Of a stretch of 64,000 nucleotides of DNA, positions 1 through 63,628 are shown piece by piece (position 1 is the first letter of the stretch; the number at the start of each line of letters is the position of its first letter). A program made the translations under genes and the position numbers. This DNA is from Octopus vulgaris (lineage: Eukaryota). The stretch spans positions 5,084,001 to 5,148,000 of the forward strand of contig OX597835.1 of NCBI GenBank assembly GCA_951406725.2. Direction: 5' to 3'. The notes beneath the pieces were generated by a model. The model was not told the DNA's origin. It did no database searches and saw nothing but the letters and a program-made list of their open reading frames with translations.

Positions 1-105
1 GAGTGCCAAACCTTCCTTTCTCTCAAGAAAACATTTTCTTCTTGTGAAGCAGTTAAAGATCTCAATGTAGGAACATCAGTGGAAGCTTGTGTGACGGACA
101 TAATG
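1..105 (+). CDS. Exon 1 (5' partial), post-VWD Cys-rich module
   Basis: [35 protein letters not shown]|gtaaat; homologous to exons 17 and 33; phase 0. Confidence 0.85.

Positions 106-63628: not shown

Follow-up and report, generated by a model that had tools for sequence, protein, structure and literature searches.

A 64-kb stretch of the Octopus vulgaris genome (hereafter the window: contig C22, positions 5,084,001-5,148,000 of a 2.8-Gb genome) lies inside an array of 14 homologous multidomain units that very probably forms one gene, coding for a single-pass membrane protein of about 1.5 MDa. A first-pass annotation made from the letters of the window had described a giant extracellular protein in which a whole VWDE-like core had become the repeat, and this description is borne out by PF26129, PF25776 and VWD matches on database pieces of the protein. 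The gene is, moreover, larger and older than was then supposed. C22 coordinates are used throughout, apart from positions marked as window positions and those of Table 1, which count from the first letter of the window.

Within the window, 45 exons, all on the plus strand, splice into one frame of about 2,900 residues that is open at both ends. This rebuild, based on splice sites and exon-type profiles, was independent of the first-pass annotation and reproduced exactly its exon count, its frame and its repeat lengths (1,004 residues for exons 2-17 and 1,024 for exons 18-33). Exons n, n+16 and n+32, described there as homologous, are identical in type and in phases, 16 exon types with compatible phases being present, and a comparison of the open frames with each other places homologous exons about 21-25 kb apart. 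The window runs from the end of unit 7, through units 8 and 9 in full, into the beginning of unit 10 (Table 1). The natural repeat unit runs from the first Ig exon to the Cys-module exon, and LamG is a cassette between units. The domains first listed for the unit were thus right, but its limits were not, and LamG occupies only 8 of the 13 slots between units.

It had been recommended that the flanks be searched for further units and for a signal peptide or an anchor, and all of these were found. After addition of 400 kb of flanking DNA, the resulting 464 kb were scanned with one profile per exon type, giving 199 matches, none of them (0/199) on the minus strand. Two weak matches (E 0.016 and 0.087) were dropped for being out of order, and the remaining ones obey the order of the 16 types. 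Missing exons were filled in by a phase-constrained search, and three exons of an F5/8 type C (F5/8C) domain were placed by similarity to snail proteins. The final chain (C22:4,836,772-5,273,868; 437 kb) comprises 229 exons and 40,728 nucleotides without an internal stop, and is translated as one frame of 13,575 residues, about 1.52 MDa, with 608 cysteines and 185 N-glycan sequons. All introns were GT-AG in the 226-exon version that preceded the addition of the F5/8C exons. The 14 units stand in strict order across the array, and one VWD exon used as query gave 14 matches on the same strand within 351 kb of C22. A fourth VWD had been predicted upstream; exon 1 of the window is indeed a post-VWD module, but seven more VWDs lie upstream, not one. 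Some exon lengths recur almost without change (type 5, 115 nucleotides in 13 of 14 units; type 8, 93 in 13 of 14; type 11, 64 in 13 of 13). No paralogous array was detected elsewhere in the genome by two exon searches, with at least 14 and at least 11 matches, all within the locus; these counts are lower bounds, and distant one-unit paralogues could escape such searches.

The frame encodes, in this order, a signal peptide, an F5/8C domain, the 14 core units, one transmembrane helix, a basic stop-transfer sequence and a cytoplasmic tail of about 25 residues. Hydrophobicity gives only one strong segment, at the C-terminus (3.23), followed by the signal peptide (1.79), so that a purely secreted scaffold is not supported and the protein is read as membrane-anchored. 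Each core unit (745-815 residues, beginning and finishing in phase 1) contains an Ig domain, a second beta-sandwich, VWD, a helical domain, EGF, TIG and a Cys module, and pairwise identity between units is 21-42%. The inter-unit slots hold two PAN exons (slots 1 and 2; Pfam E 5e-10 to 6e-4), nothing (slots 3-5) or LamG-like cassettes (slots 6-13), the last of these being followed by a membrane-proximal, 160-residue Thr-rich repeat, which forms a stalk.

The first calls of VWD, TIG, Ig-like and LamG domains stand, on the evidence of both Pfam and model fold matches. Unit 10 of a 98%-identical O. sinensis record was modelled from 25 sequences, with a predicted local distance difference test score (pLDDT) of 84.5 and a predicted template modelling score (pTM) of 0.81. 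In this model, the Ig domain covers residues 1-105 (Z about 10) and the second beta-sandwich residues 106-253 (Z about 9), the block of VWD and helices matches MUC2 D3 (Z 25.0, root-mean-square deviation (rmsd) 3.0, 242 aligned residues), and the TIG domain has a match with Z 9.4 (rmsd 2.6, 82 aligned). VWD is also called by Pfam on the argonaut orthologue. The LamG cassette was modelled (pLDDT 81) as a jelly-roll of about 200 residues; its best fold match has Z 16.1 (rmsd 3.5, 194 aligned), and it also matches collagen IX NC4 (Z 12.4), PAPP-A (Z 11.6) and the pentraxin PTX3 (Z 10.9). Its top fold matches are bacterial neurotoxin subdomains, with 6-16% identity; a toxin reading was discarded, the jelly-roll alone being in common. 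PF13385 is present on nemertean homologues, and the three LamG exons of the window searched alone had no Pfam match. Pfam searches with 27 single exons returned only PAN and VWD matches and weak EGF, TIG and Ig ones.

For the 14 beta-sandwich exons, Pfam finds no shared family and Atlas gives no usable match, and a word-index search among longer proteins with their alignment gave no match either, a weak test in which hits were crowded out. The profile of this domain (window 10380-10781), in which two Asp residues are retained, matches P0001; of 150 matches listed, about 120 are to unnamed proteins carrying 6-59 short repeats each, which we take to be Calx-beta/cadherin-like domains of bacterial adhesins. 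Asp-Pro-His is kept in 12 of the 14 VWDs, as NDPH in ten, TDPH in one and GDPH in unit 14. After the VWD, units 6-14 have a loop that is strongly basic and poorly ordered (e.g., KKRKKSK; window 19994-20172 and 43320-43501), and units 1, 2, 4 and 5 lack it; it is possibly a protease site or a polyanion-binding patch.

We infer the single gene from the chain itself, and consider it very probable. One signal peptide and one membrane helix stand at opposite ends of the chain. Once the first unit begins, the largest intron measures 9,088 nucleotides, and the 29 introns of the inter-unit slots are 0.4-3.0 kb long, leaving little room for a 3' end plus a promoter. Intron scans produced 7 membrane-like and 10 signal-like candidates, which were simple repeats, repeat-element sequence or unsupported, and a second signal-peptide candidate near C22:4,848,252 has no in-frame ATG.

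Databases carry the protein as two or three 'uncharacterized' pieces, and overlapping models tile the whole frame. From the same assembly, P0155 (start to unit 8, ending at window exon 19) is contiguous with the chain at 106 of 125 junctions, including 18 of 18 in the window, and P0179 (unit 8 to the end, starting at window exon 21) at 92 of 101 (21 of 24 in the window). Argonaut P0151 (unit 7 to 11) agrees at 53 of 59 junctions (38 of 43 in the window) and O. sinensis P0154 (unit 9 to the end, 98% identical) at 87 of 87 (10 of 10). The O. sinensis model XP_029649426.2 begins at window exon 35. Break points vary by species, and two Aplysia models overlap within one LamG exon. A start at a type-3 exon, shared by the O. 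sinensis and Pecten models, was considered as a real boundary and rejected, since by unit count and tree the start units differ (9 of 14 versus 6 of 11).

Several observations weigh against transcription of the whole chain: the tiling that supports its splicing comes wholly from gene predictions, a full-length version was not found by a profile search of 1.84 billion representatives, and the type-1 exon of unit 6 had to be left out of the model. This exon is truncated at an AT repeat, beside a duplicated 200-nucleotide stretch that carries its acceptor and start (C22:5,060,560-5,061,100), which is either an allele or an assembly error. Together with the splitting of the array in every database annotation, the last two points would fit two or more tandem genes, or an array used mainly through internal promoters or early ends, in which case the protein of 13.6 thousand residues would not be made. 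This alternative appears improbable, because the split points are species-dependent and fall inside domains, the internal pieces have neither signal peptides nor membrane helices, the introns are short, models from other species span each break, and the damaged exon has phase 0-0 and is whole in the O. bimaculoides model. Table S1 of PMC10138644 includes a paralarval transcript with a reading frame of 914 residues that contains a unit-14 peptide (see below), and which would start inside the Thr-rich repeat if it ended at the stop codon of the model.

Multi-unit pieces occur in Argonauta, two other octopus records, the bivalves Pecten and Tegillarca, and Gigantopelta, Batillaria, Aplysia, Elysia, Biomphalaria, Bulinus, Candidula and Bradybaena. 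Proteins of two units, carrying a membrane helix, are present in the nemerteans Lineus and Tubulanus, and one-unit forms in oysters, Potamilus, Lottia, Physella, Owenia, Bradybaena and Candidula. Squid, cuttlefish, nautilus and chiton have no record among the retrieved homologues. Gigantopelta repeats the slot pattern of octopus (PAN2, PAN2, empty, empty, empty, LamG), the transmembrane helix and tail are also found in O. sinensis, Pecten and Aplysia models, and the Thr-rich stalk stands before the final unit of the octopus, Pecten, Aplysia and Candidula proteins.

In a midpoint-rooted tree of 94 units and 688 columns, from which units without either anchor exon were excluded, octopus units 1-6 and 14 each cluster with the gastropod unit of the same position (support 0.94-1.0). 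Units 1, 2, 3 and 14 also cluster with bivalve units (0.94-1.0), bivalve units 4-6 not being sampled whole. A 51-unit IQ-TREE run recovered the positional groups at 93-100, while the relations of LamG-flanked units between classes are poorly resolved. Octopus units pair as 8/11, 9/12 and 10/13 (97-99.5), and their LamG cassettes pair likewise (0.77, 0.94 and 0.98), showing that a three-unit block was duplicated before the split of Octopus and Argonauta. This block is octopod-specific in the sampled data, and 11 plus 3 gives the 14 units. In Aplysia, three models on a scaffold of one length sum to 11 units, and Pecten is compatible with 11, with an unseen gap. Eleven units were probably common to gastropods, bivalves and cephalopods, and the lineage expansion proposed at first is not supported in its narrow sense, except for the three-unit block.

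The oyster one-unit proteins P0186-P0189 carry two C-type lectin domains, one core and LamG, with a hydrophobic C-terminus in three of the four. In the tree they join the second Pecten P0158 unit (0.999), so that one unit may have escaped from the giant gene and acquired lectin heads; no multi-unit array of octopus type was found for oyster or mussel among the retrieved records. In Argonauta, P0004 and P0151, which have neighbouring locus tags, share near-identical units 9 and 10, indicating that this assembly contains some of the locus in two copies, by duplication or as an uncollapsed haplotype.

Judged from its Pfam families (PF25776, PF00094 and PF26129), the core is of the VWDE family, and the whole protein misses the defining layouts of VWDE, gel-forming mucins and MUC4. 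Ig_VWDE (PF25776), VWD (PF00094), Vwde (PF26129) and EGF follow each other in the same order as in VWDE. PF00094 and then PF26129 are precomputed on P0154 and P0155; PF25776 is found on P0154, with a summed E of 4e-8 on Pecten P0008, and weakly (E 0.08) on window exon 23 alone. Single database pieces are annotated 'VWDE-like'. Vertebrate VWDE has one VWD and several EGFs and was proposed to be a matrix glycoprotein (PMC7390686, whose available text covers deuterostome VWDE only). In contrast, the octopus array has 14 cores, a single EGF in each with TIG and a Cys module after it, PAN and LamG cassettes and a membrane anchor, and its N-terminus has F5/8C and no D8C_UMOD (PF23283 is not listed for P0154 or P0155). 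Atlas clusters named VWDE scored 0.79-0.83 against an oyster unit, which are leads only.

FCGBP, a mucus protein, has 13 tandem VWD domains, 11 of them with a GDPH self-cleavage site (PMC10880436), and the octopus array, with 14 VWDs of which 12 have Asp-Pro-His, resembles it in this respect. FCGBP, however, is secreted and repeats VWD-C8-TIL (PF08742 and PF01826), whereas the octopus units are of about 1,000 residues and the protein has a transmembrane helix; Pfam gave no C8 or TIL match on 9 homologues, the octopus-type VWD being followed by the helical domain, EGF and TIG. The VWD-C8-TIL(-E) assembly of gel-forming mucins and VWF is likewise absent, although the modelled VWD and helices resemble D3. 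A signal peptide, VWD with Asp-Pro-His, EGF, one membrane helix and a short tail are shared with MUC4 and SUSD2; NIDO, AMOP and Sushi had no Pfam match on pieces covering the whole length. With membrane mucins of the MUC4 type, the array also has in common the single-pass type I topology and the Thr-rich stalk, but the octopus tract has only 160 residues, and its length comes from folded repeats and not from a Pro/Thr/Ser-rich tract. Mesh and zonadhesin are further single-pass VWD proteins of the same layout. The one- and two-unit lophotrochozoan relatives, all uncharacterised, join the same core to F5/8C, LamG, C-type lectin or MAM heads, and none has an 11-14-unit array. By analogy, the protein may work most like FCGBP, with its many VWDs, crossed with a membrane mucin or zonadhesin, with their anchor. 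The architecture had not been recognised from characterised proteins, and in line with this the literature search, whose coverage left out most subscription papers, found no description of the multi-unit protein.

The explanation that we favour, although tentatively and at slightly less than an even chance, is that the array encodes a single type I membrane glycoprotein, about 13,575 residues long, which would be a disulfide-braced tether that holds or spaces glycocalyx and mucus on wet epithelia (skin, gut). The whole 229-exon chain would be spliced into a single 40.7-kb coding mRNA. Each core of 800 residues would fold compactly (pTM 0.81), and the blocks would form, end to end, a rod whose length we estimate from domain sizes at very roughly 200-300 nm. 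The modules found at the tip (F5/8C) and between the blocks (PAN, LamG) could provide regularly spaced binding to glycans or matrix proteins. Self-cleavage may occur at the Asp-Pro-His of the 12 VWDs, disulfides then keeping the pieces together, as in FCGBP and MUC4, and the protein might be shed into mucus by way of the basic loops or of the last unit, whose GDPH is canonical. Because cores and cassettes begin and end in phase 1, whole units could be gained, lost or skipped in frame, setting the length. The cysteines (608), the sequons (185), the stalk in four genera and the similarity of the VWD block to gel-mucin D3 speak for such a tether. Table S1 of PMC10138644 contains one unit-14 peptide from octopus skin mucus (one peptide-spectrum match, cross-correlation score (XCorr) 1.49, posterior error probability 0.014), and a table row of PMC8150855 lists the Pecten orthologue as a digestive-gland transcript. 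'VWDE' is named in snail-conditioned water (PMC9589101) and in oyster gill and hepatopancreas cells (bioRxiv 10.64898/2026.05.15.723513), in passages that could not be tied to the gene of the octopus array. Of the roles first guessed, mucus is compatible with this peptide, whereas adhesive and egg-coat are left without support.

Other data speak against the tether. The mucus evidence is a single low-score spectrum, and six further motif searches in 3,654 rows of the mucus-proteome Table S1 of PMC10138644 gave no match. Only one of the 12 Asp-Pro-His motifs is GDPH (ten are NDPH and one TDPH), and in the structure of FCGBP the Gly-Asp bond is cis (PMC10880436), suggesting that NDPH may not cleave.

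The positional identity that units 1-6 and the last unit keep across classes would be expected if each had its own partner or if length were constrained. With the single-pass topology, it could point to a long-range adhesion link between membranes, encoded by the same single gene and acting between microvilli or cilia, at junctions or towards matrix through homophilic or heterophilic contacts of the repeated units; usherin/ADGRV1 links and Mesh/SUSD2 are models for such a protein. LamG, and a beta-sandwich that matches unnamed many-repeat proteins and keeps two Asp, presumably Calx-beta/cadherin-like calcium sites, would also fit, as would the NPx(Y/F) present in the tails of 3 of 8 relatives. 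Such a link is nevertheless rather unlikely, as the octopus tail of about 25 residues has no NPxY and the number of units varies (14 in octopods, 11 in Aplysia, 2 in nemerteans).

Another candidate role is that of a large receptor of lectin type in gut and gill epithelia, serving capture or pattern recognition by binding microbes or particles and internalising or clearing them. It would be in keeping with the frequent glycan binding of F5/8C, PAN and ConA-fold modules, with the C-type lectins of oyster one-unit relatives and the MAM of an annelid one, and with the digestive-gland origin of the scallop transcript (PMC8150855). We regard this role as distinctly improbable, given that the octopus tail has no endocytic motif and that a shared fold shows no function. 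Zonadhesin, a multi-VWD, single-pass protein, has the same overall topology as the octopus protein (VWD blocks in series, a mucin-like stalk, EGF and a single membrane helix), which brings in gamete or egg-envelope recognition. This is very unlikely, since gamete proteins evolve fast and strong positional conservation over three classes is atypical of them, and the expression hints in the sources above come from skin mucus, a paralarval transcriptome and digestive gland.

If the tether is accepted, the array becomes a candidate membrane-bound scaffold of molluscan mucus surfaces, relevant to infection and symbiosis in snails, bivalves and cephalopods. A wider proposal, that shelled molluscs and cephalopods share an unrecognised single-pass protein of 11-14 units and 1.2-1.5 MDa, conserved unit by unit since before the split of the classes and acting as a modular cell-surface ruler, is doubtful. 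Were it true, this would be among the largest membrane proteins known, in-frame cassettes of 1,000 residues would set glycocalyx thickness or the span between membranes, via block duplication and possibly alternative splicing, and swappable PAN and LamG cassettes would determine binding. A conserved giant gene at the level of a phylum would have been missed by annotation and proteomics because it is cut into 'uncharacterized' pieces. The array also offers a case of hierarchical repeat evolution, in which exon-shuffled cassettes accompany a core of 15 exons that had reached 11 copies by the time the mollusc classes diverged, with the octopod three-unit block duplication afterwards; single units also show one loss and two gains of introns.

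Table 1. Exons of the octopus array within the window (window positions)
Feature	Exons and positions	Strand	Remarks
Unit 7, helical post-VWD domain and EGF start	1 (1-105, starts 51 nucleotides left of the window), 2 (1247-1430)	+	helices 542-608 in unit model
Unit 7, EGF end, TIG, Cys module	3 (1725-1918), 4 (2871-3059), 5 (4805-4919)	+	
LamG-like cassette, units 7/8	6 (6537-7130)	+	phase 1-1
Unit 8, Ig domain	7 (8176-8405), 8 (8787-8879)	+	
Unit 8, second beta-sandwich	9 (10380-10781)	+	
Unit 8, VWD with NDPH	10 (12171-12247), 11 (13409-13472), 12 (14935-15141), 13 (16084-16195), 14 (17895-18003)	+	
Unit 8, Cys hairpin, basic loop, helical domain	15 (19994-20172), 16 (20662-20768), 17 (22138-22293), 18 (22593-22773)	+	
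Unit 8, EGF end, TIG, Cys module	19 (24865-25052), 20 (28266-28469), 21 (30873-30987)	+	
LamG-like cassette, units 8/9	22 (33209-33859)	+	ConA/LamG jelly-roll model, pLDDT 81
Unit 9, Ig domain	23 (34712-34935), 24 (35518-35610)	+	
Unit 9, second beta-sandwich	25 (36291-36695)	+	
Unit 9, VWD with NDPH	26 (37873-37949), 27 (38120-38183), 28 (39808-40020), 29 (40984-41095), 30 (42120-42231)	+	
Unit 9, Cys hairpin, basic loop, helical domain	31 (43320-43501), 32 (45254-45360), 33 (46058-46201), 34 (47487-47673)	+	
Unit 9, EGF end, TIG, Cys module	35 (48459-48643), 36 (50036-50227), 37 (51266-51380)	+	
LamG-like cassette, units 9/10	38 (52798-53433)	+	
Unit 10, Ig domain	39 (54653-54879), 40 (56327-56419)	+	
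Unit 10, second beta-sandwich	41 (57642-58055)	+	
Unit 10, VWD with NDPH, first four exons	42 (59202-59278), 43 (61094-61157), 44 (61890-62096), 45 (63517-63628)	+	frame runs on past right window edge

Two short overlapping frames on the minus strand of intron 4 (window 3970-4508) resemble, by eye, what we take to be the endonuclease end of a Penelope-type retroelement, for which Pfam gave no supporting match. In unit 7, the intron between VWD exons 1 and 2 has been precisely lost (C22:5,075,698-5,075,835), and it is retained in the other 13 units. Two LamG cassettes are split by introns at different positions (C22:5,162,890-5,165,088 and 5,228,222-5,229,531), suggesting two independent intron gains. 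At the 5' end of the array, a two-codon upstream open reading frame precedes the start codon within the signal-peptide exon (C22:4,836,748-4,836,771), and this exon has its own acceptor, which points to a non-coding exon further upstream.
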